The position numbers and the translations under genes were made by a program. Shown here piece after piece: positions 11,347 to 38,185 of a DNA stretch of 64,000 nt. The notes under the pieces are model-generated. The model saw nothing but the letters and a program-made list of their open reading frames with translations. It was not told the DNA's origin and searched no databases. How positions within the stretch are numbered: position 1 is the stretch's first letter; each line of letters starts with the position of its first letter. Source of the DNA: an uncultured Pseudomonadota bacterium (GTDB lineage Bacteria > Pseudomonadota > Alphaproteobacteria > Rs-D84). The stretch is from NCBI GenBank assembly GCA_902795435.1, contig CADBLE010000005.1, positions 2,758 to 66,757 of the forward strand. Reading direction: 5' to 3'.

Positions 11347-14300
11347 TTATTCTGCGCTAGCATCATATACATTGTATGTATTATTGTTATACAAAACATG
11401 CATTTTTTTACTAGATTCTGAATTTATCGTCAAATTCTGTTGACCCATATTCACATAATATGTCTTGCCACCAATTTCCACAGCCAAAGCAGGGTGGGTC
11501 AATTGTTCCTCTGACAAACACATTTTATCTGATTCATCGTTTCCAATACGTAAATATTTTTCTGTTTCGCATACTGATTGGATTGGGTTGTTATTATAAC
11601 CTTCTGGAACACAAACCTTTGCATTATCAGATAAAATATTATCATAAATTGCTTTTCTGACCACAGATTGTTTCACGGTTACACCCGAAATATAACTGCC
11701 ACAATAACCCGGACATCTTCTTTGGCAACCTTCTAGTCCGCCAGTTGCGATATCTGCAACATAAACCCATCTTGACAACGCAGGCGCACCCATTCTGCAC
11801 CAACAATATTGTCCTGTTCCAGTCAATTCATCTAAAATATCAGAACCAGAAGTAGCATTACCATTTACAATATTTCTGCTTGCGTCTGCCGAACAAAAAG
11901 CATCACCCTCAATAACAATCCCCGCCATTTCACGATTTTCTTGAACATTATCAAAAGTGGCACGCCAACGCATTGCATCTCGCATTTCTTCATAGGTATC
12001 TGGATGTACAGTTTGGTATGGTTCATAATCATCTGCATCTATTTTGTAATTGTTTATCCATGGAATATCTATTTCAATATACCCATTTTTACAAACACAT
12101 TCTTCACCGTTCCAATTTTCGTTTTCGGAACACAATGGAACCCAATGTGCATATAATACAATATCTTGGGAATTGTCTTCTGAAATATAAGTAACCTTTT
12201 CACCACCATTTGCACTGTCATACCATCCAATAAAATTATAACCTTCTTTTATTGGTTCACATAAAATTTCTTTACCCATGCCAATATTTACAGCTTCATT
12301 TTCACAACCAGAACCACCGTTTGTATAATCGTAGGTTATATTATAAGCATTATATAAACATTCAGATTCAGAATTTGCACCATCATATAATGTCGTTGAA
12401 CCATCTGGACATTTTGTACAAGAAACCTTTGGATTTAAATCAGATTCAAATCCTGTATTATATTTGTAATATCCAATTGGACATTTTGTAATCAAACTGG
12501 TTCCTTCAAACATTTCAAACATAGACATATTTGTATCGTCATAATTTACATTATTTATTGTTCCAAATAAATCAGTTGGTATAAATCCGTATGTTGTATT
12601 TGTATTATAATCTTTGAAACCAACAATTTGTGAATCATTATAAAATGTTTGATAGAACATCATCCATTCTGGTTCACCAGACAATCTGCCAAACAGATTC
12701 TTTGGCACATAACCAGACAAATTTGTACAACCATAGAAAGTTCCATAATACATCCAACCTTGTGCATCACCATAGATATCACCAAACAATCCATCTGGAA
12801 TTTCACCAGTTAAATTTTCACAACCATCAAATGTTCCAGAATACATATTTATTGCAGGATTCCCGCTAATATTTCCAAACAATCCAGATGGTATATTTCC
12901 ATATAATTTCTTGCACCCATTAAATGTATTGGAATACATAGCGATTTTTGGACTGCCATAAATACCCGCAAATAAATTTGCTGGAATTTCACTTTCAATA
13001 TTTTGACAGTTATAGAAAGTATTACTGAACATTGCTTCACGTGTTTCACCACTGATATCAGCAAACAAGTTTTCTGTAATTTCACCCGTTATTCCTGTGC
13101 AACCCGCAAATGTTCTGTAAAACATATAATCCACAGGCGCCCCATGAACACCTTCAAATATATTTTCAGGAATAGGTGTTGTAATTTTATCGCAATTATT
13201 AAATGTGTTCGCAAATCTTGGCTGGGTTGATAAAGAATCACCGTTACCAATTGTAGGAAATACCGCACCCAAAGAGCCACGAATTGCAATTATTCTATCG
13301 TATGTGTTTGTTTCGTTACTGTTTTTAACCATACCAAATGTAATTGCACCATAATAATCACTATCACCAATATAATATTCACTAACATTTTTACTGCCGA
13401 TAGAAATTGTATATGTTTCGCCAGACATATAATTTACATAATTATGTTCTATTCTGGTTGGTTCTGGGGTTGTAATTCGTATTTGTTCAATATTGCCATC
13501 GCCCCAATTTATGATATAGGTTCCAGCCGCAGAAATACGGAAAACAAATTGTGGTGTATATGGTTTAACATCTAATTCAAATGGTGATGGAACACATCCA
13601 TATTCGTCCATTGTACCAGACGCAGAAGTAGTTCCATTTGGACATAAAATCTTTGATTCGTCCGCATTTTCAATTGTCCAAACACCCTGTGGGCAATAAT
13701 AACCAATTGGACATTCACGACATTCTGTAACATCTTGACCGACATATAAATATTCACCCGCATAACATTCGTATGTTGTTACATGGCATGAAGATTCGCC
13801 CACAGAACCATATTCAGAATACAAACCGTTTGGACAGCGTCTGCAAGAAACACGACCGTCCCAGAATTCATCAAATTCAGTTTCAACCTGATAATAATAT
13901 TCTGGACAAGCGGTAACAATACCTGAATTTTCAAATATATTTAACATTCCGTCGCCCTGGTGATCATCATTATCCAAATTCGCAAACAAGTTTTCTGGAA
14001 CCCAACCAGACAAAGAATAAGTGTCTTTAAATGTTCTGCGGAATGATTTATTCTCCAAAGAACCACTGATATTAGCAAACAAATCTTGCGGTATTTGACC
14101 ACTTAAATTTTCACATCCACTGAAAGTAGCAGCAAATATACGTTCTTTTGGTTCACCAGAAATATTAGCAAACAAATTGTGCGGTATTTCCCCTGTTAAA
14201 CTTTTACAATTAAAGAAAGTTCCTGGGAACATGTGTGGAACGGTTGTTCCGCGGATATTTGCAAATAAATTTTCAGGTATTGAATATGTTGGAACACCAT

Positions 14301-16458
14301 TTTCAGAACCTAAATTCTTACACCCAGAAAAAGTTCCATCAAACATGTACGATGCTGGTTGCCCTGAAATATTACCAAAGAAATGTTCTGGGATAGGGCC
14401 AGTAATATTTTCACATCCCATAAATGTAGAATAGAACATATGTTCCACAGGTTGCCCACGTAATTCAGCAAATAAATCTTCATCAAGAGAACCTTTCAAA
14501 TTTGTACACCCGTTAAATGTTCTCCAAAACCTTGGTTGTGTTGATAAAGAATCACCGCTATCAATTGTAGGGAATATCTTTGCCAATGACCCAGAAATGT
14601 ATTCAATTGCGTTATAAGTATTTGTTTGACCAGACCAATTCGCAAAAGAAATTGCAGCCGTTTCTACACTGGTGCTGTACCCATCTGCCAAACCACCAAT
14701 TCTGATGGTTCTGGATTTAGTATCTGAATATGTATGATAGATGGGCAAAGATGATTTATCTGTTTTTATGTATTCAGTAACATTACCATCACCCCAATCA
14801 ACATAAAATCTTCCAGATGCAGAAATACGGAATTCAAAATAATTTATTGAATTTGTGCTTATATTAAATTTTGCATCTATACATTCATTATCGTATACAA
14901 ATTGGTTTGTTGCACATATCACAGGTGTTATTGTTCCACCACCACCATTACCACCAACGGCATCACAAGAATCATTAAATACTTTTTTTCTAAATTCTTG
15001 ATCATTAGCCACCATTTCTGCACACAAAGCAGGGCAATTCTTACGACAATATTCATTCTTTGCAGTCCAATTTCCAGAATATCCAGACACGATATTACCA
15101 TAAACTACCCATCTCTTTTTATCCAAAGAACAAGAACACCCACCATAAGTTCCAGTCAAAACACCAGTTTTTATATCACCACGTGTTTTCCATGCGTTTG
15201 CCGCACAAACCGCCCAACCATTTACAGTTACACCATTAAAATCAACACCCCAACCCTGGTCAGATGTATAATAATCAAGTTCTGCCATATATTGGTCATA
15301 AATTGCGGTTCCTTCGCCTGCGTTGCCAGCAGATTGCGCAGATTTAAGATTAAACGAACTGCTACTGCCTGTTAGCAACTGATATTCTTCACCATTATAT
15401 GAATAATACACATCTGTGCTTATTTCTTGGACAGAAGGTAATTCTGATGTTGGATAATAAGAAGAAGCATTTTCAACAACACCATCTTCGCAACTCAAAC
15501 TTGGTACCGATATATTATGTTCACATTCTTGGTTTATGCCATTCCAAGTATAATCATCACCACGTGCATTACATTCAGATTCATAATCATATCTGCATGT
15601 CTGAGATTCAGTATCCCAATAATAATACCCGCCACGATTATCACATTCTGTTCTGTGGTTTTTACATTCACCATTTTCCCAATAATACAATTCACCATTA
15701 TTTACACATTCAGATTCATAATCATATTTACATGTCTGGGATTCAGTGTCCCAATAATAATACCCACCATTATCTTCGCATTCTGATTCATAATTATATT
15801 TACACGCCTGAGTTTCAGTGTCCCAATAATAATATCCACCACGATTTTCACATTCTGCTTCGTAATCAAATTTGCATTCATTGGCATTTTCGTCCCAATA
15901 ATATCCTTCACTGCATGTTGTCGTTGTATTCGGCACACAAATTTCACCATTATTTAAAATATTTGTTCCGTAAAAACTGCGAATTGTTGTCGAATATGTC
16001 TTGTTTGCACATCTTTTTGAACATTCGTCAAACCAAACATTTGAACCTTCTGGGATTGTGCTTGATGGGGCAACCGCACCACCAGAATAAGTCCAATTTG
16101 TTTCAAATGGCGCAACAATACGACACCAGCAATTTTTACCGGTATATGTCCCCGCCGGCACACTGGCATCTATTGAACCCGTACCTTTGTCCCAACCCAA
16201 AGATTCCCCATATATAGTTCCAATATTTGTTGCTTCTGCGGTAAATGTTGAACCAGAATATGAATAAGTCGGGTTTTTAACATTAAAATCATATACATGT
16301 GATGTTTTTGTGTAACCACTATCACAAACACATTCTGAACCATTGTATGTTGAATTAGTAGGGCAATTTACATCTGCCGCACGAACATTTTCCATATTTC
16401 CAACAACGATAAATAATGTCGCTGTTAAAAATCTAAAAAACATACGTTTCAACAACAT
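11347..16458 (-). CDS. giant mosaic surface protein 1 (1703 aa): G..CWC cysteine modules, YYWD tandem repeats, two BspA/DUF285-like cassettes, Cys-rich modules, conserved C-terminal domain
   Basis: Uninterrupted 5.1 kb ORF in AT-rich DNA with signal peptide MFFRFLTATLFIVVGNMENVRA. Module map in nt: CWC 15931-16368; YYWD repeats 15523-15915; CSC variant 14959-15276; BspA-like cassettes 13924-14841 and 12493-13551; Cys-rich 13591-13911 and 12355-12483; one Listeria-Bacteroides-type repeat 12142-12348; CWC 11608-12132; C-terminal domain 11350-11574. It starts only 7 nt after the stop of the upstream giant ORF. Confidence 0.9.
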   Translation of the reverse strand: MLLKRMFFRFLTATLFIVVGNMENVRAADVNCPTNSTYNGSECVCDSGYTKTSHVYDFNVKNPTYSYSGSTFTAEATNIGTIYGESLGWDKGTGSIDASVPAGTYTGKNCWCRIVAPFETNWTYSGGAVAPSSTIPEGSNVWFDECSKRCANKTYSTTIRSFYGTNILNNGEICVPNTTTTCSEGYYWDENANECKFDYEAECENRGGYYYWDTETQACKYNYESECEDNGGYYYWDTESQTCKYDYESECVNNGELYYWENGECKNHRTECDNRGGYYYWDTESQTCRYDYESECNARGDDYTWNGINQECEHNISVPSLSCEDGVVENASSYYPTSELPSVQEISTDVYYSYNGEEYQLLTGSSSSFNLKSAQSAGNAGEGTAIYDQYMAELDYYTSDQGWGVDFNGVTVNGWAVCAANAWKTRGDIKTGVLTGTYGGCSCSLDKKRWVVYGNIVSGYSGNWTAKNEYCRKNCPALCAEMVANDQEFRKKVFNDSCDAVGGNGGGGTITPVICATNQFVYDNECIDAKFNISTNSINYFEFRISASGRFYVDWGDGNVTEYIKTDKSSLPIYHTYSDTKSRTIRIGGLADGYSTSVETAAISFANWSGQTNTYNAIEYISGSLAKIFPTIDSGDSLSTQPRFWRTFNGCTNLKGSLDEDLFAELRGQPVEHMFYSTFMGCENITGPIPEHFFGNISGQPASYMFDGTFSGCKNLGSENGVPTYSIPENLFANIRGTTVPHMFPGTFFNCKSLTGEIPHNLFANISGEPKERIFAATFSGCENLSGQIPQDLFANISGSLENKSFRRTFKDTYSLSGWVPENLFANLDNDDHQGDGMLNIFENSGIVTACPEYYYQVETEFDEFWDGRVSCRRCPNGLYSEYGSVGESSCHVTTYECYAGEYLYVGQDVTECRECPIGYYCPQGVWTIENADESKILCPNGTTSASGTMDEYGCVPSPFELDVKPYTPQFVFRISAAGTYIINWGDGNIEQIRITTPEPTRIEHNYVNYMSGETYTISIGSKNVSEYYIGDSDYYGAITFGMVKNSNETNTYDRIIAIRGSLGAVFPTIGNGDSLSTQPRFANTFNNCDKITTPIPENIFEGVHGAPVDYMFYRTFAGCTGITGEITENLFADISGETREAMFSNTFYNCQNIESEIPANLFAGIYGSPKIAMYSNTFNGCKKLYGNIPSGLFGNISGNPAINMYSGTFDGCENLTGEIPDGLFGDIYGDAQGWMYYGTFYGCTNLSGYVPKNLFGRLSGEPEWMMFYQTFYNDSQIVGFKDYNTNTTYGFIPTDLFGTINNVNYDDTNMSMFEMFEGTSLITKCPIGYYKYNTGFESDLNPKVSCTKCPDGSTTLYDGANSESECLYNAYNITYDYTNGGSGCENEAVNIGMGKEILCEPIKEGYNFIGWYDSANGGEKVTYISEDNSQDIVLYAHWVPLCSENENWNGEECVCKNGYIEIDIPWINNYKIDADDYEPYQTVHPDTYEEMRDAMRWRATFDNVQENREMAGIVIEGDAFCSADASRNIVNGNATSGSDILDELTGTGQYCWCRMGAPALSRWVYVADIATGGLEGCQRRCPGYCGSYISGVTVKQSVVRKAIYDNILSDNAKVCVPEGYNNNPIQSVCETEKYLRIGNDESDKMCLSEEQLTHPALAVEIGGKTYYVNMGQQNLTINSESSKKMHVLYNNNTYNVYDASAE
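15523..15915 (-). repeat. in-frame tandem repeat, about 6 units of roughly 63-72 bp (21-24 aa)
   Basis: Protein units are C[ED]NRGGYYYWDTE[ST]Q[AT]CKY[ND]YESE. On the plus strand the motif cccaataataata recurs at about 15615, 15677, 15750, 15822 and 15894. Confidence 0.9.
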
Positions 16459-16465
16459 TTCCTAC

Positions 16466-19400
16466 TTACTCCATACTCGCGTCATATACGTTATATATTC
16501 TTCCCATATATTCAACACGCATTTTCTTGGTTGTTTCCGCATTTATTGTTAAATTTCTTTGTCCCATATTTGCATAATATGTTCTGCCATTTACCTGTAT
16601 TGCCAAAGCAGGGTGCGTCTGTTGTTCTTCATACAAACATAATTTATCTGATTCATTTTCGCCAATTCTCAAATATTTGCCAGATGGACATACAACATGA
16701 CATTCTGAAATTGCACTTGCGCCGTCATATTCCGTTGTTGTGCCATGAGGACATTGTGTCTTGGATTCATCTGCGGTTTCAACCGTCCAGACACCTTCTG
16801 GACAATAATATCCAATTGGACATGTTCTGCATTCAGCAACATTTTCATCAACATACAAATATTCACCAGCATCACATTCAAATTGTTCTTCTACACAAGA
16901 ATTTTGACCAACAGAACCAGCGTCTGACAAAGTTCCAACAGGGCACTTTACACAATCTGAAATATTTTCATCATAGTAATAATTTTCATTACATTGTGTT
17001 GATTCATCTAATTCCCAAACAGCATATAAATATTTATCACCAATTGAACCTTGTTCTATTGTATATGACAATGTTGGGTTTGAACAATTTTCGGTTTCGC
17101 ACCAACCCATAAATATGTAATTTGTTTTTTCTGGGTTGTTCAATGTAAATGTCGCGGTTTCAACATTATAAGATGTTGGGTTTTCCGCATAACCACCGTA
17201 TAATTCATATGTAATTGTGTAATCTATAGGCATACAGATTATACCTGTCTGGAAATCATACATTTTTTGTCTGAAACTTGTCTTGTCGCGCAAATACGAA
17301 GCACAGTTGCTTGCACAATGATTCTTGCAAGACGCATCATCATCGCGATTATAACGATAACCCCACTTTGAAATACGGCTTTCGATATTTCCGCCTGTTG
17401 GGGTGAAATAGTTGATTTGACACCAACAATATTGACCAGATGTTTCAACCCCCATATAACTTGTATCTGCGGTTTCGCTATCTGGTGTGTTATTGCAAGA
17501 TGCTATACCTTTGATTACACCATAATCAAAATATGTTTCCCATTCGCCATTATTTAATGTGTTTCCTTCACAACTATCACTTGCACTGCCATAACAATGT
17601 TGCCCATCATTGCTTCTTGAAATATATGAATTTCCTTTCTTGCTGATATCAACATTAAACGCAGAAGTGGTTGATGTTGTCTTGTAATATCCCACAGAAC
17701 ATCCTTCATATACACATTGTTGTGTATTTGCATCCCATCTGTAATCTTCGCCACGTGACAAACATTCTGATTCATAATCATATAAACATTCATGTGTTGC
17801 AGAATTCCAATAATATCCATCGGCACAAGAGCACGCTGATACATAACCACCATCAGAATATCCATGTTCTGGACATGCAACACACACGCCACCAGATGTC
17901 TTGTAATAATCTTCATGGCAAGGTTCTTCAATCCAACGTGCGTATAATGTTATATCTGTTGCTAATGATGTATCTATACCTGTTATTTCTGTATTATTTT
18001 CATCAAACCAACCAACAAATATTTTGCCGTCTTGTACTGGTTCAACCAATGAACTAATAAACGGTGTAGTTACGTTATATTCATAAATAACATTTGTGTC
18101 AGATTCAAATTCACCACCGTTTAATACATAGTTGATATGATATACTATCGGTGTATATGCACAAGTATTTCTGTTTCTATATATTCTGCCAGAAACCACA
18201 TAATAATCACGGCTTGAACAATTGTTATAACAATCATTTTCTGATACAGAACCAGCATCAGACCAAGGATATGAAGCAGGGCAATTTTCTATGCCAGAAT
18301 CTGTTGTTTCAGAATATTCATAATTACCACCAGAACAATATTTGTTTTCTTCACATTGTGCACAAACAAGTGTTCCAGCAGGCAAATAATATCCCGCTTC
18401 GCATCGTACAGTTTTTGGCATCCATTGTGCATAAACAGTTGTATCATGCGTTGTTCCTGTTTTGATATTTGTTATAGCATTCATATAATCTGGTGCCAAA
18501 GACCAAACAAGGAAATCATAATTTGGTTTTACAACACTTGTTGGTAACGCAAAACTATCCAATCTGGTATATGTGGTTCTTACATCACTGCCATCTAGCC
18601 ATGTACCACCATTTAATTCATAGTTCAGGTTATATTCTTCCATTTCTATGTTTGCAACACATGTCGTTGTGTCTTCTGTTACAGGCATATATTCATCGGT
18701 AGCATGTTCAACACCATTACATGTCCACCCGATTAATGTATCAAGTGTTATTCTGCATTCTGTTGCGGTTGGTGGCAAAACAGTAAATCCAACATAATTT
18801 GTTCTGGTTATTTGATGATTATTACCACAATCATATACAACACTTCCTTGTGGTGTTGCGATATTCCATCTTGCATACAATGTTACATCACCAGTCATAC
18901 CACGTGCAAAACCATATACAACATTTGATAAATCAGCAGATGTTGACCATCCATCAAATGCATATTGATGTCTGGTGTCACCGTGATGGTTATATGTTAT
19001 ATTTGATGGATATATAACATCATCTTGCTTTGTATATGTATTTGGTGTCAGACCAGTAATTTCATATTCTGTGCCATCTTCTGCAACATCTTTATAGGTA
19101 ATATGATATGTTTCCAAAACTTCTGGTTCTGGTTCTTTCAATTTTACATTACATGTTATTGTTCCATCTTTAACAGTGACATTTTCATCCAGCGCATATT
19201 CTTGTTCATCACATATCCAACCAATTAATGTTTCTGTGTCTATACGACATTCTGTCGCAGTTGCAGGTGACACGGTAAATCCAACATAATTTGTTCTGGT
19301 TATTTGACGCCTGTTACCACAATCATATACAACGTTTCCTTGTGGTGTTGCGATATTCCATCTTGCATACAATGTTATATCACCAGTCATACCAGGTGCA

Positions 19401-22400
19401 AAACCATATACCACATTTGATAAATCAGCAGATGTTGACCAACCATTAAACGCATATTGATGTATTGTGTTATCATTATACGGATATGCCACATCTGTTG
19501 GATAAACAACTGTATCTTCGGCAGTATATGTATTTGGCAACAAACTGTCTGGGATTACAGATTCCGTACCATCTTCTGTGATGTATTTATATGTAATACT
19601 ATATTCTTCGTAATTCCATTGTGGATTACATACGATTTGGTTTTCCGCAACTACCACACCTTCTGTTGCAGAATATACAGTTCCATCACAATTCCATCCT
19701 TCAAATGTTCTGTATGATGTTTCTGAAATACCGCATTCTTCCAGTGTAGCAGGGACAACAGCAAATCCAACATAATTTGTTCTGGTTATTTGACGTTTCT
19801 TACTGCAATTATACAAGACAGAACCTTGCGGTGTTGCAATATTCCATCTTGCATACAATGTTATATCACCAGTCATACCAGGTGCGAATCCATACACCAC
19901 ATTTGATAAATCAGCAGATGTTGACCAACCATTAAACGCATATTGATATGTTGTATTTTCATCATACGGATATGTCACATCCGTTGGATAAACGATATTA
20001 TCTTGCACAGTGTATTCTCTTGGGTACAGAGTATCCAATACGCCTTCTGTACCATTTTCTGTGAAATATTTATATGTAATGTGATATGTAACCGTATCAA
20101 AGACAGCATAAAATACCTTATTGCCAGTGTTTTGTACCGGATTAAATACATATTCCACCACAGGTTCTGCACAATTTGCGCTGCCTTCGCACCAACCTTT
20201 GAATGTATATCCCTGTAACACAGGATTATTCAGTGTAAATGTTGGGGTTGTGATATTATATCTTGATGGATTTGCCTTTGGTAATCTTGCACCACCCAAT
20301 TCATATCTAATGTTATAATCTTGTAAATTCCAAACTGCATATAAATCAACCGTTGCATTGTCTTCATCCGTCAAATTCTTGACAATAATATCATTATTGG
20401 CAGATGGATAATACATCACACTGTTATTATTGGCATCTGTTGACCAACCAACAAAACTATACCCATTTTTAACGATTTCATCATGGTTTGTAATATCACA
20501 ATTTTCGTTATAAACACAAGATATGGTTGCTTTTTCACCTGTTCCTGTATTTGCATTAAATCTTACATTATAATTATGAACATTCCAAACAGCATCACAC
20601 ACAACATCTTCATCTGGGACAACAATATAATCAACCAATACCTGTGGTGTATTAGAAACATTGCCAGCGCATCTCCATCCCTGGAATGTATAACCAGGAT
20701 TTGGACATTCAGAACTATCAAGCAACGCTTCGTTTTCACCGTATGATACATCTTTTGTAACGTGTTTATCCGCAGAATTATTACAATTATATGTAATTGT
20801 TCTTGTGTTTGTTTCCCAAACACCAGTCATTGTTACAACATTGTTATTAGGCACCAATCCATTGGTATTCACAACAATATTTGAACCTGTATAAATATAT
20901 TCTGTACCTTTGTTGTCAACAAATCCTTTGAATGTGTATCCCGGTCTTGATTGTGGAACATTACACAATGTGACGCTGGTATCTGTTGGCAAAGTATATG
21001 CCTTGGATGAATCAGGACATTCTTCAATATTTTCTATATCAACATATTCTATTGTTGCAGGATATCTACAAACACTGATTGTTTCTTCTGGGGTATAAGA
21101 TTGATTTGTAATATATCCTGGCTTAGTTGGACAATACGCAAAACAATCGTTTTCTCTGCTTCTTGGTTCATTAGAACCAGCCGAGAACACACCCAACAAA
21201 ACAGCACAAGAATTATCACCTTGGTTTTCATCTGGATTGAAATTCCAAGTACCTTCTTGGCAATAGAATCCAGATTTACATTTATTGCAAGTTGTTGAAT
21301 TTGCAGGCAAATAATAACCGTCATCACAATGATAACTGCCTAATTTCCAAATAGCATACAATTTTACGACACCTGGTTCTGTCAGTAAATTTTTAACCAA
21401 GATTCTATTGTCTTCGTTTGGAACAAAAACATTTTCTTCATCATACGCATCTAATGACCAACCAACAAAATCATATCCTAATTTGGTAATTTCATTGTTG
21501 TTTGTGACGTCACAATTCGTGCCATATTCACATATTACATTTGGTTTAGAACCTGTTCCTGTATTTGAATAAAATACTACTGTATATTTATTTGCATTCC
21601 ATACAGGTTCACAATCAACATCAAAATCATTTGCCCAATAATTAGTGGATGTTAAATTAAATTCTGTGTTATCTGCACGTGAATGACATTGCCATGAATC
21701 AAATTCATATCCTGTATTATTCCCACAAACATTTTGTCTTACTGTATAAGCACCAGCATACGAAACCGTGTCTGTAACAATATTATTTGAATCACACAAA
21801 TAACGTATTGTATATTCTTTATTTCCCCAATTCGCCCAGAACGTTAAGTTCCCAGTAGAACCCTTTGTTATCACTGTATATTCTTCACCGGTCAAATTAC
21901 TATTATTATACCAACCAGCAAATTCAAAACCTGTCCTTATTGGTTCTGGCAAAACAATATCTGATTCTATTTCCGCATTGTAAGTACGTGGGACATATGT
22001 ATCAGCAGTGAAAGATCCATTGTTCAAATTATATGTAATTGTATAAGGTTCAACATACCATTTTGCGTATAATTGTTTATTTCCAGTTGAACCTTTCGCA
22101 ATTTTTGTTATTTGGTCGCCTTCAAATTCTGGGTTATCAAACCATCCCAAGAATCTATAACCAGTTTTACTTGGATTATACAACACAATTGTTTCTGTCT
22201 TCATATTATATGTTGATGGATTTCTTTCGTCGTTAGTTCCACCATTCAAATCATATTCTATTTCGTATGTTGTTAATTCCCAATTTGCATAATATGTTGT
22301 TGTAGCAGCAGGTTCTACATTTGGTATGTATTCAATATAAGGTTGTTCATAACAAGTTGTTCTTGATCTGTCTGTGCACCAACCAATGAAACTATATCCT

Positions 22401-24250: not shown

Positions 24251-24274
24251 GAAACCTTCCTCTTTCTTAAAGAT

Positions 24275-24304: not shown

Positions 24305-24354
24305 GCAAAAAAACGCATTTTTTGTATATTTTTTTAATTTTTTTACACACTATA

Positions 24355-24383
24355 AAAAAGCCCGGAAAACAGGGTTTTTTATA
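24355..24383. terminator. weak hairpin with flanking A/T runs (possible terminator of giant gene 3)
   Basis: aaaaagccc-ggaaaaca-gggtttttt has only 3 G:C pairs plus A:T pairs. On the minus strand one stem pair becomes an A-C mismatch. Confidence 0.3.
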
Positions 24384-24523
24384 TATAAACAAATATGTTT
24401 TTGTCAATTATTTTGACTATTTTTATTTATAAAAAAATTTACAGTAAAAAAATGTTGTTTTTGTGTTTTTATTTTGCATTTTTTTGTGTTATTATTATAG
24501 CGAAGAGAGAAGGGAGGTATTTT

Positions 24524-24739
24524 ATGAAATCTAATATTACAGAATTAAAACCATCTGATATTACAAGTGAAGTATTTCTTATCTCTAAAACACAAATAGA
24601 TTTTATTTCTGCTAATTTTGGCGACGCCATGGCAGAAGCATTAAATCTGAAATCTTTATCATATAAATTCCGTAAAATCGCAGCAGACACTTTGGTCAAA
24701 GCACTGAATTCTGCCAGCACAATGGGGGGACGTCAATAG
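24524..24739 (+). CDS. small hypothetical protein (71 aa), divergent ORF between giant genes 3 and 2
   Basis: ATG at 24524 is preceded by GAAGGGAGG 6 nt upstream, the strongest Shine-Dalgarno I saw in this window. No TM segment. The ORF-track start at 24395 is an upstream extension through very AT-rich, promoter-like DNA. Confidence 0.55.
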   Translation: MKSNITELKPSDITSEVFLISKTQIDFISANFGDAMAEALNLKSLSYKFRKIAADTLVKALNSASTMGGRQ

Positions 24740-24775
24740 TCCTTTTTTTATTTTTTATATATTTTTATTCGATAA

Positions 24776-27700
24776 TTATTCGGATGTTACATCCCAACCT
24801 GCAAATACATAACCCGGTCTGGTTGGAACAGTTGGTACAAAACTTGTATCATACATACAAGAATCATTTATTATATCTGTTCCGTCATTATAGTTATATT
24901 TCAACGGCAAACCATTTGCATTCCAAATTGCATTTACAAATATTGTTTCAGGAACATTTGTTAAATTGAATACGCTGATTCCAGATTGGGTTTGTGGATA
25001 TTCAACACCACTTGTATTACGTGACCAACCCATAAAATCATACCCAGTGCGTTCAATTTCATTATTAGAAATATCGCAATTTGTATCATAATAACATGTC
25101 ACAGGTGCCTTTTCACCGTTACCACCATTTGCATTAAATACAATTGTGTATTGAATTGGGGTAAATATTGCATACAATGTTTTGTTTCCACCGACAGATG
25201 TATCAAAACTATATTCAATTTCAGGGTTTGCACAATTTTCAGTTTCACACCAACCAATAAATTCATATCCGTTTTTAGTTGGGTTATTCAATGTAAATGT
25301 TGGTGTTTCTACATTATACGATGTTGGATTTGTACCAGATACAATACCATCATCTAAGATATATGTAATTGTATAATCAACCGGTGTCCATTGTGCATAC
25401 AATGTTACATTTTCTACCCCAGACCAATCGAACAGAACGCTAAGATCGTATTCATCATTTTCACCTTTTACAATCTCATTACCAGAACCATCTGATTCCA
25501 GATTCCATGAATTAAATTCATAATTATTCAATACAGGTGTTTGATTTGACACACAATTTTGACCGTCCACACAAATAACATCATTTGGCATACCAACAAC
25601 ATCTTTCTGGATATTTTTATCAAAATGTACATTTATTGTCATAACCCATTGAGCATATAAATCTATATTACCAATTGTATCCGCAGGTATATCCAATGTG
25701 TTTATTGTTTCTTCACAATCATCGGCACCAACACACCAACCGATAAATTGATAACCATTTTTAATTGGTGCATTTGGTGTTATTGTTTGGTTTTCACTGG
25801 CAGAATATGTGTATGTATTTGGATATACACCACCCAATTCATTTTCCCAATCATAATAATTGATATTATAAACATTTGGGGCCCATTGTGCATACGCATT
25901 GATATCACCAATTGTTCCACCAACAATTACCAATGTCTTTTGTGAATCACCACAATTATCAGAATTCAAACACCAACCATTAAATGTATAACCACGTTTT
26001 TCTGGCTCAATCGGTGTTATTGTTTGACTGTCATCAGAATATATATATGTTGCCGGTGTAATTTCAGACAATTCATTCGCACCATCATAATATTTAATAT
26101 TAAACACATTTAATTTCCATTGTGCATATAATGTCTTGTTACCAGTTGAACCTTGTTCAATTGTGTATGTAAGAACAGGGTTATCACAATCAGTATCGTT
26201 TTCGCACCAACCAACAAATTCATGGTTTGCTTTTGTTGGGTTAAACAATGTAAATGTTGGTGTTTCAATATTATAAGATGTTGGATTTGTGCCAGATACA
26301 ACACCACCATCAAGTTCATAAGAAATTGTATATGCATATTTACATGTTGATATATCATCACCATTTTCACCATAATATGCGTGTCCACCAGATTCTGGAA
26401 TATAAGTTCCACCCAAAGAATCATTCACAGGACAGTCTCTGAAACACATATTAATTGAAGAATTTGAGACAGCCCCCTCTATTGATGTGTATCCAGATGG
26501 ACAGAATGCGCACCATGGTTTTCCTGCATCGTTGAACTGTTCACGTGTTGAATTATACATTCCGTCCGGACAATATTGTTTTAAATTTGTATATTGAAAC
26601 ATATATGACACCTGATTTGGTGATGTATCATCGGTAATATTTTCCAAAAATGATTCAGGAATATATTCTGTTGTAGTCGTTCCATCCGAAAATCCTTCCA
26701 AACCACTACAGCCATTGAACATTCTTAAGAACATCCATGTTGCAGGATCACCCGATATACCTGCAAACAGATTACCTGGAACAGTTCCCGTAAGATTTCT
26801 ACAATTTTCAAACGTTAAATTAAACATATACGGTGCCGGATTACCAGATATACCCGAGAACAGATTGCCAGGTATTGTTCCAGTAATATTAGTACAGTCT
26901 GTAAACGTGGCTGAAAACATATGCGGTGCTGGATTACCAGATATACCAGAGAACAGATTGCTAGGTATTGTTCCGGTAAGTCCACTACAACCATTGAACG
27001 TGCCTTTAAACATACCATTCACAGGTGCACCATGAACACCATTAAACAATGTTGGCGGTATTGCATATTTTTTACCAGGATTGTTTGGGTCATCTATATC
27101 CGTATCAAGCATATTTGTTACGCCCGAAAATGTATAAATAAATCTTGGTTGTTTTGACAATGAATCACCATTACCAATTGTTCCAAATATTGCACCCAAT
27201 GAACCAGATATACCCGCAATCTTTTTAGGTGTGCTAACACCACTGTTACTCATAGCAAAATCAATCGCTGAATAACTGCTGTCACTAGCTGGATTTGAAT
27301 TATATCCTGTTGCGCTTCCACTGAATCTTATTTCATGTTTATTTGCTGCATTTGTATACTTACAACCGTATGTAGCATCTGTAGTATTACCGGTACGATC
27401 AATTGTATTACCAGCACTACGTACATGATCACCCCATCTATCGCTGTCTATCAACACACCATCATCACCGCAATCAACATAGAACACACCAGATGCAGAT
27501 ATACGGAATCTGTATGTATCATTTTCACCCATTGGTGTTGTTGTTAAAGTAAATTTAACAGGTTCCCATTTTGCCCAGAATTCTTTATCACCTGTTGCTT
27601 CTGTACCAATTGTTTGTGTGTAAGAACAATTTTGCAATTGTGCGTCAGTGCACCATCCGACAAATATATAATCTTCACGTGTTGGCTTGCCATTAATTGT

Positions 27701-30700
27701 TGCACCAACACCGAATGTATAAGAGGTTGGGGCGTCAACATAATTTGTCGCACCATCCATATTGTTATATGTAATTGAATACCCAGCATTTTCCCATTTT
27801 GCATACAATACTTTATCGCCAGTTGTTGAACCTTGTTCAATTGTGTATGTAAGAACAGGGTTATCACAATCTGCATTGTTTTCGCACCACCCATTAAATT
27901 CATAGTTTGCCTTGGTTGGATTTTCCAATGTAAATGTTGGTGTTTCAATATTATACGATGTCGGGTTTGTGCCAGATACAACACCACCATATAATTCGTA
28001 TGTAATATCATAATTGATTGGTGTCCATTTTGCATATAATGTTATTTCATCGCCGTCAGTTAAATTTAATACATTATTAAAATACACAACTTTTTGATTA
28101 CCAGCTTGTGTTGTATGTATGAAATCTGTACCTGTGCCGTCTGCAGCACTATTCCAAGAAACAAAACTATACCTGTCTCTTGTTGGCCAATTTGAGCTAT
28201 TATACAGTATACTGCAACCTTGCCTATCTGTACAAATTGTATCAGCTGGAATATTTTGTACTTCACTGTTACCGGCGTTAGCATCAAAATGTATTGTTAC
28301 CTGTCGCAGCCATCTTGCATAAACAGTTACTGTGCCACTTGTGCCAGCATCTATTGTTAATGTCTTTGTACAATTTGCAGTTGCTTCAACATTATCACAC
28401 CATCCAACAAATACATAATGTTCTTTTGTTGGCTCAACCGGAGTGATTTCTTGATTATCGGTTGGGTTATATGTATATGTGTTTGGTGTTATGTTATTCA
28501 ATTCCACACCATCACTGTAATATTTAATATCATATGTATTTTTCATCCATTTTGCATATAATGTTTTATTACCTGTTAAATCAGTTATAGTAGTTATTTG
28601 TTCACCACTAAAATCAGATGTTTCATACCAACCGTCAAATACATAACCCGCAGGTGCATTATTTGGTTGATAATCGCTGATATGATATGCATTTGTGGTG
28701 ACATTAACACCGTCACTGGTTCCGTCAAAATCGTGTTGCTCGGTCTTTAATACGGTTGAACCATCCATAAATGTAACCGTTGCATAACATTGCGCAACCT
28801 GCCATGATGCTGGTTCAGAATCAGGGTAGGCATCTGGACATTGTTTATACAATTCGTCTTGATTTGCATAGAAAATACTATTGTTCATATCTACAATATT
28901 TGTAAATATGTTTGGAAAACTGTGATTCCCCATACCCGAAGCATACGCAGAAGCAGTAACACCTGTAAATTCATCTACATCTCCCGTTGATTTTGATTTA
29001 TCATAACTGTTTGTATAATATCCACGTTCTGCCGGGACACATGGACTACGATGTGAATCATTATATTGAATATCGCTAAAATCACCATTATATAAAGACA
29101 ATTCATATTCTGGGTTTCCTATATAATAACCCCTTTTACAACTTGCTATACCAACTGTTGCAGGAAAGCACAAATCATATAAACCCGTTATCGTATTGTA
29201 TTTACAAACACTTTCTAGATTATAAACAGTAGAATTTATACTATTATTTGCATCATAATCTGCAGAGATTTCTGTGTTATTAAACAAACTACCGGATAAA
29301 TCAACATTATCTGGTGAATTAGCATACATAAATCTTGCGTTACAATTTTCCAAACTATCCGCATATTCATCAGATTTAACACGCAATGCACCAAAACTTG
29401 AATTATCAACCGCTGGACATATTACGGTTTCTCTGACCCATTTTGCATATAATGTTTTATTACCAGTTAAATCGGTTGCAGTTGTAATTTTATTACCGCT
29501 GAAATCAGATGTTTCATACCAACCGTCAAACACATAACCTGCAGGTGCTTGTAGAGTTGGTTGATAATTGCTGATATGATATGCATTTGTGGTAACATTA
29601 ACACCGTCGCTGGTTCCACTGAAATCGTGTTGTTCTTCTTTTAATATAGTACCACCGTCCTTAAATGTTACCGTTGCATAACATTGTGCAACCTGCCATG
29701 ATGCTGGTTCAGAATCAGGGTAGGCGTCTGGACATTGTTTATATGCATCTGAAAGTACCCCTATATCCATTGTTCCAGGATTCACGACCACACCACGCGA
29801 AATACTACCCATAACCCCCATATTATTAGCCATTATTAGTTCTTGTGAGTCTAGATTGTCTTTTGCCATAATTAAATCATATGTTGCGGTATAATATCCA
29901 GGTTCTGCCGGCACACACGCAAATGAACTAAGTGGTGTTGTTGCAAGTATAGAACGAAAAGCTTCAGCTTCGCTCTGCGAATTATATTCCATTGGCAAAA
30001 CATGTGCATCAAGTTGTGTTTGTGTTAAATAATACCCAGATTTACAATATTCGACATATAAATCGTAACATCTGTCATATTGTGCAGTCGTTTGATTATA
30101 TTTACACAATAAATATAATCCAACATCATTTTTATTTATATCTAAATTTGTATTATATCCAGAAATTTGCGACACACTAACATTACTATACATAACAGAT
30201 GGATTTGACCCGAAAAGCAGAGGCACCATACAATCTTCAATACTGTCACTTTTTAGATAATCCCCACCAAGTGCTTTATTTATTATTATTGATTGCGCAT
30301 AATACGCACCGATATTTGTATTATCGAATATTGGACATTTTACGTTCCCTTGTGGTGTTGTTTCATTATAATCATAATCACGAGAATCTGGACAATAATA
30401 ACCATCATTACATTCTGCACATTCTCTGGAACCCGCTGGTAAATAATAACCCGCATCACAATGTATTCTTGTTGATTCTTCACAAGTTTGTGAAACGGTT
30501 GAATACAAAGATTCACGAAACTCTTGTGGGAAAAACGCAAAACCATATATACCACAAAAAGACTGACAATTTGTGTTACAACTCGAATCACTTCCTGCAT
30601 ATACCCATTGGGAAAGGGCGGTTTCACCGTTTAATTTTTCTATACGGCACCAACAATGATTACCGCTATCTGTAATGTTCGGATTACCAGTTTGATATAT

Positions 30701-33700
30701 TGTTCCGCCAGTTTCAGAACAACCAGCAGTACCGTTTATAACACCCAATTCGTTTTTAACTTCCCATGAACCAGGTTTTAAGGTTCCAAATATACTACTG
30801 TCGCTACAATCAGATGAATTTGTTTGTGTCAATAAATTCTCGTAATAACAGCTATCAACCTGTGGGTTTTTAACTTTAACATATTCCAAACTTGGATTAG
30901 AAGTATCAAAATCACGAGAGGTTAATTCATACCCACTTTGGCAAGACAATGATGAAATATCACATGCGTTTTTGTTATTCAATACACACGTAGGTGAACC
31001 ATAATACATTTTACATGTAGCGCTTTGTGGGGCATATGGTGTTTGCGCGTTTGTTATATGATAATACTCTTCACAATCTACAGAAGAATTTCTGTAACAC
31101 ATATAAATATTATCAGCGTTTGTTCCATCACGGAAACCTTCTGGACACAAAGAACATTCATTACCGTTTTTATATTCGCCCGCACCACAAGAATCTAAAC
31201 GCCATTTTGCATATAATGTTATTGTTGCGGTTGGTGTATATGGACTGCTAACCACATTGGTAAGATTGGAATCAGAATACCAACCATCAAATGTATAGTT
31301 TGCCTTGGTTGGTTCTGGCAAAGTTATTGCAGGCGAACCGTATGTGTAATCATAAGGTTCTATCGCATCACCACCATTTGTATTATATGTAATTCTATAA
31401 ACATCTGGGGAACAAACCTGATTGTTTAATGAACCGAACACCGCAGCACGGAACGCGAGGGCGTTTGAGTAGTCCGTGATCCGCATGTAGTCCTCACAGC
31501 TGCCCGCGCAGTGGACCGCACAATACGACGCGTTTCCATCGTCGCGGTTAAACACCCAAGGGGAAGACAAGCTCTGCAATGTGTCACCATTTGGTATATA
31601 GCCATCCAATTGGCAATAGCAATATTGTCCCGTACCTGTTTCATCCGTTAAATTACTTACAAAATGGTCAGGTTCGAATGTGTATCCATTTTGATCATAC
31701 CATGGATTCGCTACATTACGTGTTGAACATCTGCCATGTCCCTTGATTATTCCTTTTGTACCATAATCTACAGCAAATGCCATTGGGTCATTTGATATGA
31801 TTGTATTGGACATTCCGTATGTATCATAGTCGGTCCCAGTGCTATCGTTTGATGTATAGCCGTTAGCATCCGTTGTACCGATTGTTGACATAAGGTCTGG
31901 GGTTATATGATAATGTGTTTCACAACCCAAGGCAGAGCAGGTGTCAGGCATATCATAATAATCATTGCCACTTACAGATACAGAATGATCTATATTAGCA
32001 GTTGTACAAGCACGATAACATTCTTTTATATTTTGTGCATTGGTTCCATCACGGAAACCAGCCGGACACAAGAAACAAGCACCTCCATTTTCATATTCAC
32101 CCGCACCGCAAGAATCCGAACGCCATTTTGCATATAATGTTATTGAGCCCGTTGGGGTATATGGACTGCTAACCACATTGGTAAGATCGGAATCAGAATA
32201 CCAACCATCAAATATATTGTTTGCCTTGGTTGGTTCTGGCAAAGTTATTGCAGGTGAACCGTATGTGTAATCATAAGGTTCTATCGTATTACCACCATTT
32301 GTATTATATGTAATTCTATAAACATCTGGGGAACAAACAGAATCAAACAAAGCAGTTCGTAAACTCAGCGCCAGTTGACCACCATCACGCATTCCGTATG
32401 CACAATTAACAGAACAATTGTTTGCACATTGTCCTGCATTATCATAAGACGATAACAATAATGAACCCGAAGATATATTTTTAGTAACACCTGATGATGT
32501 ATAGTTATACAATTGACAATAACAGTTTGGACCAGAATTATCTGGCAAACTTGTGTTTATAACAGTATGATTTGTTCCTGTTTGGGTACTGCAAACACTG
32601 CGTCCTCTGACATACCCTTTGTCAGCCCCATAATATACGGCGAACGCATATTGAACACCATATATACCAGCAACAGCCGATGACAAACCACCGTAATTGC
32701 CAATTTGCCCACCATCAGATCCATTTGCAACATAATCTGCTCCCGCTTCACTAGTCCCCATTATTTCTGTCAAACTTTGGTCAGAATGATAATTTATCGG
32801 ACAAGATAATTGTGTCCATTGGGCTTGAACCCCAGTTGCAACACTGGATATTATTCCACCGATATATGTTGCCACACAACCATTAGACACAGTTGTATTT
32901 GCACCTTTTATTGTTCCATTTGCTAATTTCCAACCAGTAAATGTATATCCAGAACGAGTTGGGACAGATGGCAAAGTTAAATTTCCACCGTATATGCAAG
33001 AACCATTTGCAATCGTATTTCCACCATTTTCATCCCAATTTAATGTGATAGTGGCTGGTGTCCATTGTGCTACAATATATGTAGAAGTGCCACTTGATAC
33101 ACCTGTGTAAGTACTTGTACAACCACCAGATACTGTTTCACCGGCATTATGAATTGAATTGTCAGCCAATTTCCAACCAGTAAATGTATATCCAGAACGG
33201 GTTGGGGCAGATGGCAAAGTTAAATTTCCATCGTATATGCATAAACCATCCGCTATTGCAACGCCACCGTTTTCATCCCAATTTAATGTTATTTCTTCTG
33301 GAACCGGATTGAATGTCATACTCTTTCTAACCATACCTTGTTGATTGGCTAATTTTATCAATTGGTATTGTCCAGAATCTGGGGCAAATTGTGGTGCAAG
33401 CCCACCAAAACTCCATTTTTGACCATTCAACACTTTGTTCATGAAATATTCCACAGAATCACGTGAATAATCAGATAATTTATATCCCGCTCCGGTTGAA
33501 AGTTCCTTATCTGGATTGTTTTGCATACCAAAACATTCCATAAGTGTTTCTCCACTACAATTAGCAGAAAAATATGAACCAGAAGAAGGCACCTTATACG
33601 ACATCATAAACACCGCCAATGGACTGATATAAGCATATCCATCTGTGCTGCCTTTAGGGACTTGTATGTTATTCAAATATTTTGCAACATTTTCGTTTTT

Positions 33701-36700
33701 ACAAAAATCTGCGCCATATTCTTTTTCATCACAAACAAAAGCATACTTACCATTTGGTTCTATATTTAATATAAGTGGTGCGATATTACTTAAATGTTCT
33801 AAATTGTATTTCTTATCATTTATTATTAATTGTCCTGTCAATGGAATATAATCAGAAACCACATCGCCCGCAACGCACCCAATCCACACACCACCAGCAT
33901 CAAATCCAGCAGGATTTTGTTCTTTATCAACATAACCATTAAATGCAAAACCGTCACAATATGGTAATTCTGGTAAAACTGGTAAATCTAAACCTTCACT
34001 AATTTTACCGATAAATGTTACATATTCTGAAATATTATCTTTGTTTCCAATAAATGACGAACCAGCAGATAACAACGAATGATTGTTTTCCCATAATGCA
34101 TCTTTCGCTAAATCTGCTTTGTACTCTTTATCAATAAAAGTACCAATTCCAACAAAAGAATTCTGCGATGTTGCCCAATATCTTATTTCTGTATTATTCT
34201 TTTTGTATACATCATATGGATTAAGATATTCATCAACATATGTTAAATAAGAGTTTTTATTGTAACACCATTGGTCATCTTTAGATATCCCAGTATAACT
34301 GTTCATACAAACTTTTTCATCTGTATTACAACCAACATTTACAATATTCATTGGACAACGATATTGATTATCTTTTGATACACACTCTTCACCATTTTGT
34401 ATATATCCTGTATCACAATTATCTATTTTTATACTACAATGATCTCCTGTGCTTGATGTATTCATATATTCTACCCATGATGTATCTCCTATATATGAAC
34501 ATGTTGAATGTGGTGGACAATTCAAAGCAGGACAACTTTTTGTTACAGAACATGTACCATTGCTATAAATAGGATATTCGTCTGGACATTTTACACAACT
34601 GTTCGTTGTTTCATCAAAATATTCTGTTCCATCACAAATTATTTCTTCCCATTGTGCTGTAATAGATGTAGAAGTGCCACTTGATACACCTGTGTAAGTA
34701 CTTGTGCAACCACCAGATACTGTTTCGCCGGCATTATGAATTGAATTGTCAGCTAATTTCCAACCAGCAAATGTATATCCAGAACGGGTTGGGGCAGATG
34801 GTAAAGTTAAATTTTCACCGTATACGCATGAACCATTTGCAATTGTATTTCCACCATTTTCATCCCAATTTAATGTGATAGTGGCTGGTGTCCATTGTGC
34901 TTGGATATTTGTTGAAGTGCCACTTGATACACCTGTGTAAGTACTTGTACAACCACCAGATACTGTTTCACCGGCATTATGAATTGAATTGTCAACCAAT
35001 TTCCAACCGCTAAATGTATATCCAGAACGAGTTGGGGCAGATGGCAAAGTTAAATTACCATTTAATGTACAAGAACCGTTTGCAATTGCATTTCCACCAT
35101 TTTCATTCCAATCTAATGTGATAGTGGTTGATGTCCATTGTGCTGTAATAGATGTAGAAGTGCCACTTGATACACCTGTGTAAGTACTTGTACAACCGCC
35201 AGATACTGTTTCACCAGCATTATGAATTGAATTGTCAGCCAATTTCCAACCAGCAAATGTATATCCAGAACGGGTTGGGGCAGATGGCAAAGTTAAATCA
35301 CCATTTAATGTGCAAGAACCATCTGAAATTGCATTTCCACCATTTTCATTCCAATTTAATATGATATTTACAACAGTTGGTGTTGGACATATATTCATAC
35401 TCTCGTTAATGGCAGGATTGCTTCCATCACGCCAAGTTTGATAATAAAACATTGTTGCACATCCCCGAGCACAGTCGTTTTTACAATCAGAATAATTACT
35501 AATTTGCGAAGAATCTATATAAAACCAAGATGAATCCACTGGTGTTTCTGTGCCAGTAGAACCAGATTTCGTTTTTGTTACACGACACCAACAATTATTA
35601 CCAGTTTTAAGGTTTCTTTCTGTAACAAGTGTTGAATCCACCCCAGATTCAGTTGTTTTTCCCGTATTTATACATGTTGTTTCACCGTATAATACATTAT
35701 AATCCAAATCCATTACCATCCAAGTACTAGCATCTGCTGGAATTAAATTTGAACAATCATTCAAATAAGAATTCACACCACTAAATGAGCCATTAAACGC
35801 AGATTTACCAGCAAAACACCCAGAACCAGCAACAGAACCCAATACACTATCTTCATAATTTGTACATGTTTGTTCTTCCCATTGTGCTTGAATACTTGTT
35901 GACATTCCACTTGACACACCTGTGTAAGTACTTGTACAACCACCAGATACTGTTTCACCGGCACTTTTTATTGTTCCGTTTGCCAATTTCCAACCATTAA
36001 ATGTATATCCAGAACGGGTTGGGGCAGACGGCAAAGTTAAATTTCCACCGTATGTGCAAGAACCGTTTGCAACATCCCCACCACCATTTTCATCCCAATT
36101 TATTGTTATGGTTGCTGGTGTCCATTGTGCTGTAATAGATGTAGAAGTGCCACTTGACACCCCGGTATATGTTGCCACACAACCATTAGACACCGTTGTA
36201 TTTGCACCTTTTATTGTTCCGTTTGCTAATTTCCAACCAGTAAATGTATATCCAGAACGGGTTGGGGCAGATGGTAAAGTTAAATTACCATTTAATGTGC
36301 AAGAACCATTTGAAATTGTATTTCCACCATTTTCATCCCAATTTAATGTTATAACGACGGTTGGTTCCGGTTCTTTACCACCGCCTTCTGGATAATCATC
36401 AAATCTTTCTTTGTTTCCAGTATCTTCAACACCCGCACAATTTGAATTGCATTGGAATTTTGTCAGTGATGTATGATGCGGAATATTATCATAAGTTATC
36501 TCTGTTGATTTACCAGTATTATTATACAATATGTTTGCATGTAATCTGGTTGAACGTCCAAACGTTGAAGAATTTAACATTTTATGCAATTCTTTTTCTT
36601 GTGTCAAATTATATATAATCGCATCTTTGTCTGTTTGGCTAAATTTAACATCTTTGCCAACCTGATTAGTGAAATATTCCTCATACGCCATAAACATAGC

Positions 36701-38179: not shown

Positions 38180-38185
38180 AAAAAT

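Follow-up and report, generated by a model that had tools for sequence, protein, structure and literature searches.

A six-cysteine extracellular domain, targeted by diversity-generating retroelements in stand-alone homologues, recurs in three giant adhesin-like proteins of an uncultured alphaproteobacterium

A 64,000-nt stretch of DNA from an uncultured alphaproteobacterium of the Rs-D84 lineage (contig CADBLE010000005.1; the whole stretch is referred to here as the window, and coordinates are window positions unless a locus is named) carries three consecutive minus-strand open reading frames (ORFs), g1, g2 and g3, whose giant products contain eight copies of a cysteine-rich module. The module is a real, unannotated, and widespread extracellular domain of ~110–130 aa with six conserved cysteines. 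As a family, it is a scaffold for diversification by diversity-generating retroelements (DGRs), which does not in itself make targets of the copies in the window; one of the eight, the third module of g3 (g3M3), nevertheless shows traces of a DGR template at the nucleotide level. Neither the link to DGRs nor the nucleotide composition by which g3M3 deviates from the other seven copies formed part of the first-pass annotation, a model's reading of this DNA from the letters and the ORF list.

The overall explanation advanced here, which is very probably correct, is that of a six-cysteine extracellular domain serving as a DGR scaffold in homologues and as a binding module in the window proteins. 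In the stand-alone homologues, a DGR copies a template repeat (TR), extending from W-V-F to F-R-x-x-x-F-G, by way of an adenine-error-prone reverse transcriptase (RT), and ~10–14 asparagine (AAC) codons are randomised, by prediction at the end of the last strand and on one face of a disulfide-stapled helix. Since the randomised codons line one face of this helix (i, i+3, i+4, i+7, i+8, i+11), that face would constitute the binding surface. The window holds eight copies of the same putative ligand-binding unit, its function seen in the homologues, built into three giant secreted adhesin-like proteins. One of these copies, g3M3, would be either a variable repeat (VR) on which a DGR located beyond the window acts in trans, or a sequence imported recently from a DGR target. 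A bolder combination of claims, namely that the module is the first well-supported DGR scaffold other than the C-type lectin (CLec), that it is used both stand-alone and in giant adhesins, and that g3M3 is a live mid-protein VR rewritten in trans, is put forward tentatively and falls somewhat short of an even chance.

The domain family and its diversification in homologues

A hidden Markov model (HMM) of the family, built from 181 domain instances of which none came from the window, was run on the six-frame translation of the 64 kb and recovers exactly eight copies and no others, with domain E-values from 1e-29 to 2e-4. All are in frame, on the minus strand, and located where the first-pass annotation had placed them: g1M1 (15928–16320, E=2e-4, the weakest), g1M2 (14956–15324, E=8e-13, a C-S-C variant) and g1M3 (11605–12045, E=4e-16) in g1; g2M1 (17225–17620, E=1e-29) in g2; and g3M1 (35381–35797, E=6e-17), g3M2 (32318–32710, E=1e-21), g3M3 (31403–31852, E=4e-29) and g3M4 (30473–30841, E=4e-20) in g3, the second and third of these with C-Y-C. 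The eight segments can be aligned, sharing an invariant G, C-x-C, C-x3-C, R and a final C, and the motif skeleton originally proposed agrees with the family consensus over 237 instances (w.v.f...G...G...Cs...g.yCwC...Wv...C...Ca..Ca...fR.a.f). Of 311 instances, 297 are complete for all six of the cysteine columns. Two details of that skeleton need amendment. The C-x3-C-x3-C cluster attributed to every copy is present in general, the exception being g1M1, which retains just two helix cysteines and has also lost the strand cysteine; and the final cysteine, common to the window copies, lies outside the family core because the stand-alone homologues stop short of it.

Searched exhaustively with HMMER, 1.84 billion cluster representatives yielded 1,522 matches at E<=1e-3, of which 334 reach E<=1e-10; the 1,522 are now without a domain annotation and could receive one. 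Family proteins range from 115 to 6,218 aa and contain one to seven copies of the module; roughly half of the 158 that were retrieved terminate together with their last copy (P-numbers below denote retrieved proteins, L-numbers the loci or contigs obtained from genome and metagenome scans). A word-indexed search retrieved small secreted single-domain proteins alone (P0001–P0008). With hmmscan, no Pfam family was matched by the eight copies at E<=10, by 42 family members at E<=1, or by the stand-alone protein P0005; no NCBIfam model matched over the module, and profile searches against all PDB sequences gave nothing relevant. So far as can be tested with these collections, the domain is indeed undescribed, as had been suspected. 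Scattered sub-threshold hits from the same searches (uDENN, XPA_C, HasA, META, EGF_Mua-3) were regarded as noise and not accepted. The NCBI annotation of one family member rests on its InlB B-repeat ('InlB B-repeat-containing protein [Alphaproteobacteria bacterium]'). The family has a wide distribution, both among gut and rumen Alphaproteobacteria of the 'Candidatus Enterousia' / Rs-D84 type and among further lineages known from metagenomes, and the closest relatives of the window modules come from metagenome-assembled genomes (MAGs) of the Ca. Enterousia / Rs-D84 type. Signal-peptide-like starts in all three giant proteins and in the small homologues, together with the six conserved cysteines, bear out the early suggestion of an extracellular, disulfide-rich fold. 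The further suggestion that the module is the ligand-binding unit of these proteins has gained strong, if indirect, support, because DGRs hypermutate this same domain in homologues.

The evidence for this last statement is clearest on the contig of P0005 (L002). Here, a second copy of the gene's final 134 nt, with 92% identity, is present 317 nt downstream, and all 11 mismatches between the two copies are located at adenines of the downstream copy (p 1e-9), the TR, which encodes SRWVFQNANGSVADCRSNCANNCGNNVRNNSAFRAGVFGS. The TR is followed by a 108-aa ORF and then by a 341-aa RT that displays the motifs IGNLTSQ and YCDD and matches Pfam RVT_1. Such an arrangement is the defining signature of a DGR. 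The VR covers the C-terminal half of the module, running from W-V-F via C-x3-C-x3-C to F-R-x-x-x-F-G. A metagenome scan added 32 loci, with homologous RTs in L020 and L022–L025 and with mismatches concentrated at TR adenines in L021 (11 of 11), L023 (nine of ten) and L024 (six of seven and ten of 12). A genome scan with the g3M3 subfamily, carried out on the GTDB representative genomes—among which the window's own genome is not included, the best match being 54%—returned 17 loci, all from uncultured gut or rumen Alphaproteobacteria and many of them named Candidatus Enterousia. One Ca. Enterousia MAG carries an Asn-rich TR and an RT on one contig (L018) and the corresponding VR on another (L016), where it terminates a 164-aa secreted protein; all 14 mismatches fall at TR adenines (p 7e-12), and the VR is thus either remote from its TR or separated from it by an assembly break.

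The closest relatives of g3M3 belong to a subfamily whose stand-alone members of ~290 aa are likewise DGR targets. These proteins (P0274–P0289) terminate in the module, are near-identical at their N-termini and become hypervariable after 'SAPWVF'. Hypervariation within populations is seen in thirteen rumen variants, in which the columns as far as 'SAWV' have low entropy, near zero for the most part, and those beyond it very high entropy, except at Cys, Gly and F-R. The P0275 locus (L058, a single DGR also represented by contig L059) holds a complete cassette composed of VR (6743–6892), TR (7072–7221), a 108-aa accessory ORF and RT, and 13 of its 15 VR/TR mismatches are at TR adenines (p 1e-7). 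Downstream of the terminal VRs of L058 and L016, hairpins of 13–16 bp are found. RTs adjoin module genes in L002, L018, L020, L022–L025 and L058, and share the IGNLTSQ and Y-x-DD motifs and the RVT_1 match; those of L002 and L058 are 51% identical. The 108-aa ORF between TR and RT (2901–3227 in L002, 7455–7781 in L058) has no match in Pfam or NCBIfam and is for that reason not recognisable as the usual Avd accessory protein. Altogether, VR/TR pairs of the kind that marks DGR targets, a kind defined by ~85–95% identity and by mismatches essentially restricted to TR adenines, accompany module homologues in six independent loci. Partial 'TR-like' module fragments also occur in L028, L034 and L036, but their differences from the neighbouring genes are not biased towards adenines, and they were not counted as DGRs.

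Short palindromic repeats flank the Ca. Enterousia DGR cassette (L018, 900–1300 and 2830–3050) and also occur at the N-terminus of P0004; where read through, they translate to peptides of the '...IPAFAGMT...' type. They may explain the assembly breaks between the contig with TR and RT and that with the VR.

Fixed copies and a template-like island in the window

In the 64 kb of the window itself, none of the six frames shows an RT motif, and none of the eight modules has a TR-like repeat. All eight copies are internal in their proteins, in contrast to the C-terminal VRs of the stand-alone homologues. Orthologues from a related organism allow conservation to be assessed for g1M2, g1M3 and g2M1 only, since a protein search with g3 residues 1676–2452 was swamped by Flg_new repeats and produced no g3 orthologue. 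Both P0045, the orthologue of g1, and P0032, an orthologous fragment of g2, are 68% identical to their counterparts overall, whereas the segments equivalent to the VR are 97.8% identical in g1M3 and 92.5% identical in g2M1 and constitute the best-conserved parts of their proteins. Furthermore, these two segments contain codons (AAG, CAA, AGA, AAA, GAA and ATG) that cannot derive from AAC templates. Except for g3M3, the copies show background composition, with a G+C content at third codon positions (GC3) of 0.20–0.25 (0.25 in g1M1 and 0.20 in g1M2; g3M1, g3M2 and g3M4 are also at background), apart from 0.42 in g2M1. Their ordinary composition, together with the conservation of g1M3 and g2M1 above the level of the remainder of their proteins, makes the seven copies look like binding modules of fixed specificity that are homologous to the DGR scaffold. 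A point against extending this view to all seven is provided by g1M2, which is 54.5% identical to P0045 and hence below the 68% average of the protein; 'conserved and fixed' holds for two copies only.

The elevated GC3 of g2M1 concerns its VR-equivalent segment (17249–17368), where the value of 0.42 compares with a gene mean of ~0.22. This moderate rise may be what remains of an older segment of DGR origin, even though the segment is 92.5% conserved in the orthologue.

A GC-rich island at 31427–31572 (minus strand) sets g3M3 apart. It resembles a DGR template repeat and is a candidate VR; its VR-equivalent part (31427–31561) encodes aa 2093–2137 of the 4353-aa protein, PWVFNRDDGNASYCAVHCAGSCEDYMRITDYSNALAFRAAVFGSL (PWVF...LAFRAAVFGS). 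Compared with the whole of g3, the island is richer in G+C (0.59 versus 0.36) and in NNC codons (0.42 versus 0.11) and poorer in A (0.17 versus 0.33), and its GC3 amounts to 0.71 as against 0.22; the GC3 maximum of the gene is located here (0.78; mean 0.22, sd 0.08), and 31434–31568 is the highest-GC 135-nt segment of the 64 kb (0.607; mean 0.358, sd 0.05). A match to a foreign TR is seen for this window copy alone: over 142 nt, the island is 74% identical to the TR of L058 (E 3e-22). Of the 32 adenines in this TR, 17 differ in the island, compared with 17 of its 107 other bases, a 3.3-fold excess (p 5e-4). Comparable GC-rich TR-like islands lie inside multidomain proteins at a minimum of nine further loci from alphaproteobacterial MAGs (including L004, L007, L010–L014 and L017), where, as in the window, a Flg_new repeat mostly comes next. 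The island of g3M3 is probably a DGR target or a recent derivative of one. Viral contigs were scanned for its invariant 3′ end, and no exact match turned up. The second-highest GC stretch of the window (63204–63338, plus strand) was considered and rejected as a VR, since its GC content follows from the amino-acid composition of a Gly/Ala-rich hydrophobic C-terminal membrane segment in a 345-aa secreted protein (62396–63433).

Whether g3M3 is still being rewritten is a more delicate matter, and the chances that it represents a live VR served in trans are close to even. This reading draws on the maintenance of a distinct composition in an AT-rich genome, on the recurrence of the island across species, and on the existence of a VR and its TR on separate contigs in Ca. 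Enterousia. Several observations weigh against it. Neither a TR nor an RT for g3M3 is found within the window; no inverted repeat or hairpin follows the island, as one does the terminal VRs of L058 and L016; the island lies in the middle of its protein, while proven targets carry the VR at the C-terminus; and half of the differences from the foreign L058 TR (17 of 34) are at non-adenine bases. These points would fit a situation in which the eight copies are static, no DGR acts on any of them, and the island is a relic of domain shuffling or of gene conversion from a stand-alone DGR target—an alternative that is quite possible, though less likely than not. It is at odds, however, with several observations. 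An unmaintained patch of 140 nt with a GC3 of 0.71 should decay in a genome with a GC3 of 0.22, and the other seven copies are devoid of such a patch; the persistence of like islands in the other MAG loci suggests ongoing overwriting from a template; the L016/L018 pair in Ca. Enterousia furnishes a precedent for a VR on another contig than its TR; and changes are 3.3 times more frequent at adenine positions than at other bases.

Predicted fold and relation to known diversified domains

AlphaFold2 models were obtained for g2M1 (69-sequence alignment; mean predicted local distance difference test score, pLDDT, 78.4; predicted template modelling score, pTM, 0.76) and for the proven DGR target P0005 (42 sequences; pLDDT 93.2, pTM 0.85). 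The order of elements is alike in both: five to six beta-strands are succeeded by a long helix and a second short helix, with C-W-C placed in a strand, the C-x3-C-x3-C cysteines on the long helix, and the conserved Arg of the F-R motif on the second helix. In P0005, the TR-templated variable codons correspond to positions 96, 97 and 99, at the end of the last strand, and to 108, 111, 112, 115, 116, 119 and 120. When mapped onto the helix, residues 108–119 would form an i, i+3, i+4, i+7, i+8, i+11 stripe, with cysteines 105, 109 and 113 on the neighbouring face. Disulfides probably join the three cysteines of the modelled helix to three cysteines of the sheet, and the rare paired losses of cysteines within the family (four cases for C3 and C6, two for C2 and C5, one for C1 and C4, in addition to g1M1) suggest the pairing C1–C4, C2–C5, C3–C6. 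Foldseek found no significant structural neighbour, the best values among 350,542 PDB chains being E=0.42 for g2M1 and 1.8 for P0005 (TM-score <=0.27) and the best in BFVD E=0.52. The fold predicted for the module is thus unlike that of the C-type lectin, the sole fold so far documented for DGR targets.

This conclusion has to be measured against the view that the module is itself a C-type lectin variant and structurally nothing new. The x-F-R end of the module's VR faintly recalls the G-F-R end of FGE-sulfatase-type VRs. Large surveys assume C-type lectin ancestry for uncharacterised VR-bearing domains: Roux et al. (2021; PMC8144416) found annotated VR regions to be systematically C-Lec, considered uncharacterised ones to be probably new C-Lec variants, and wrote of 'near-universal conservation' and of a 'seemingly unique ability' of this fold. 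Classes of VR domains have been laid out elsewhere (PMC5758913), and a recent paper goes no further than suggesting that non-C-Lec domains may occur in DGR targets (PMC11661182). Both AlphaFold2 models, independently of each other, place the variable residues on a C-terminal helix after an all-beta part whose sheet has no interrupting helices, and the i, i+4, i+8 spacing of the cysteines fits a helix. No C-type lectin appears among the 50 best Foldseek matches listed for PDB or BFVD, in a PDB library in which the presence of the solved DGR variable proteins is unconfirmed, and the FGE-sulfatase (PF03781), DUF1566 (PF07603), Lectin_C and Mtd models match neither the eight copies (E<=10) nor 42 family members (E<=1). 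A C-type lectin variant is consequently improbable. Two considerations nonetheless count against the proposed explanation. The fold is a prediction that was compared with PDB and BFVD, and a very remote kinship with C-type lectins or with other proteins may exist; and the disulfide map derives from a handful of paired cysteine losses, to which there are two counter-examples, rather than from model coordinates.

A role as a structural spacer or stalk of the giant adhesins comparable to EGF-like or GCC2_GCC3 repeats, with no binding function of its own, is very unlikely: the module does sit between repeat blocks, cysteine-rich Ephrin_rec_like repeats occur nearby, and two copies show weak sub-threshold EGF_Mua-3 matches (E 0.14) at their N-terminal edge, but these matches fall outside the HMM core, DGRs diversify the module in at least six independent loci at positions that form one exposed face—a pattern that marks ligand-binding surfaces in all studied DGR systems (PMC5758913, PMC8144416)—and the VR-equivalent surface, being the most conserved part of g1 and g2, fits a spacer poorly.

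As a putative binding module, the domain belongs to an already known kind, that of DGR variable proteins and adhesin binding units; what would be new is a scaffold with a predicted fold other than CLec. The appropriate comparison set is formed by the CLec proteins of DGR systems, i.e., Mtd of Bordetella phage BPP-1, TvpA of Treponema denticola, LdtA of Legionella, AvpA and TaqVP. Like these, the module homologues have a VR in their last ~130–150 nt, a TR with adenine-specific mismatches, an adjacent DGR-type RT, and AAC (Asn) codons clustered at the variable sites, and they are secreted or surface proteins presumed to bind ligands. Unlike the CLec proteins, to which it displays neither sequence similarity nor predicted structural similarity, the module would expose its variable residues on a disulfide-stapled alpha-helix instead of on strands and loops; the gene next to the RT is the conserved 108-aa ORF without a Pfam match; and the window modules are internal and repeated in giant proteins with no local DGR. 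A second point of reference is offered by the DGRs of reduced-genome episymbionts, the bacteria of the candidate phyla radiation (CPR) and the DPANN archaea, which also act on small secreted targets with unannotated VR domains (PMC5758913, categories g and h). The closest genomic relatives of the window organism have genomes below 1 Mb (PMC12306168); phylum and target domain are different. Ephrin_rec_like/GCC2_GCC3 and EGF-like repeats, found or faintly echoed in the same proteins, are extracellular and disulfide-rich as well, but measure 40–50 aa and have no beta-sheet/helix core.

Should the proposed reading be correct, DGRs would possess a second scaffold, unrelated to CLec, of ~110 aa and stapled by disulfides, which would challenge the generalisation of an almost exclusive role for CLec and supply a compact natural framework for engineered binders. 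The modules would also provide a functional handle on giant unannotated surface proteins, as their specificity-determining parts, and suggest how binding units evolved by DGRs could turn into permanent components of adhesins.

The giant proteins and their genomic setting

The three proteins differ in size and repeat content. The smallest, g1 (11347–16458, minus strand, 1703 aa), carries its three modules together with BspA-like repeats, one Flg_new repeat and a C-terminal domain of ~70 aa; g2 (16466–24250, minus strand, 2594 aa) combines 18 Flg_new repeats with g2M1 and ends in the same domain as g1; and g3 (24776–37837, minus strand, 4353 aa) contains 21 Flg_new repeats and four modules. The blocks of 81-aa repeats described in the first-pass annotation are present, and their units belong to the Listeria-Bacteroides type (Pfam Flg_new; 18 stretches in g2, 21 in g3). 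Pfam recognises solely these repeats (1, 18 and 21 stretches in g1, g2 and g3) and two Ephrin_rec_like repeats, the Flg_new matches (PF09479 / TIGR02543) being above threshold with E-values down to 8e-172, and NCBIfam likewise recognises repeat models alone. With their signal-peptide-like starts, Flg_new and BspA-like repeats, g1–g3 resemble surface giants of the Listeria-Bacteroides repeat (Flg_new / InlB B-repeat, PF09479) and BspA types, while the cysteine module itself stands outside those families and their models.

The window has a G+C content of 36%, and the neighbouring genes are chromosomal housekeeping genes, namely dnaE, secA, rsmH/mraW, the RNase P RNA gene, tolQ–tolR with ybgC, and ruvB, arranged in part in the order ruvB-ybgC-tolQ-tolR; this order and the G+C content are in keeping with an alphaproteobacterium, and the TolR encoded here is found on 13 public contigs. 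The bacterial class A RNase P RNA (37872–38182, plus strand, 186 bits) is encoded on the strand opposite to g3, 35 nt upstream of that gene's start codon. Ca. Enterousia are described as gut bacteria with genomes of less than 1 Mb and a reduced metabolism (PMC12306168). If the genome of the window organism were equally small, the ~26 kb of g1–g3 would take up ~3% of it, a share that would be consistent with an attachment-dependent lifestyle and that would have a parallel in the CPR and DPANN episymbionts, for which the DGR literature notes an enrichment of these elements (PMC5758913).

Further recurrent elements were noted in these proteins and their relatives. The conserved ~70-aa C-terminal domain (11347–11607 in g1, 16466–16700 in g2), with the consensus C..G.YLRIG....DK.CL..EQ.THPALA..I.GK.YY.NM.....IN....KKM.V.Y....YNVYD.S.E, also ends P0011, P0016, P0031 and P0035; by eye, similar-looking C-terminal domains occur in proteins encoded upstream of the DGR target genes at L002 (388–1347) and L016 (9390–10634). 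Its sole Pfam match, to DUF3781, is sub-threshold (E 0.0014), and the domain may serve to sort or anchor these proteins. Blocks of BspA-like repeats (F.GC..L.G.IP..LF.GI.G.P...MF) extend, according to approximate positions taken from the translations, over ~13600–14900 and ~12300–13500 in g1 and ~27000–28200 in g3, each after a conserved beta-rich 'F.F.ISA.G.FYVDWGDG' unit. Neither blocks nor unit match Pfam or NCBIfam at E<=0.1, and together they are a second unannotated recurrent module of the giant proteins and of their relatives P0009, P0012, P0013 and P0039. Two of these relatives, P0009 (6218 aa) and P0012 (4750 aa), are giants with five to seven copies of the cysteine module and end in a conserved domain of ~230 aa (...EIEH..PA..FGSNFTEW..GDP.C...) that by eye resembles endonuclease I.

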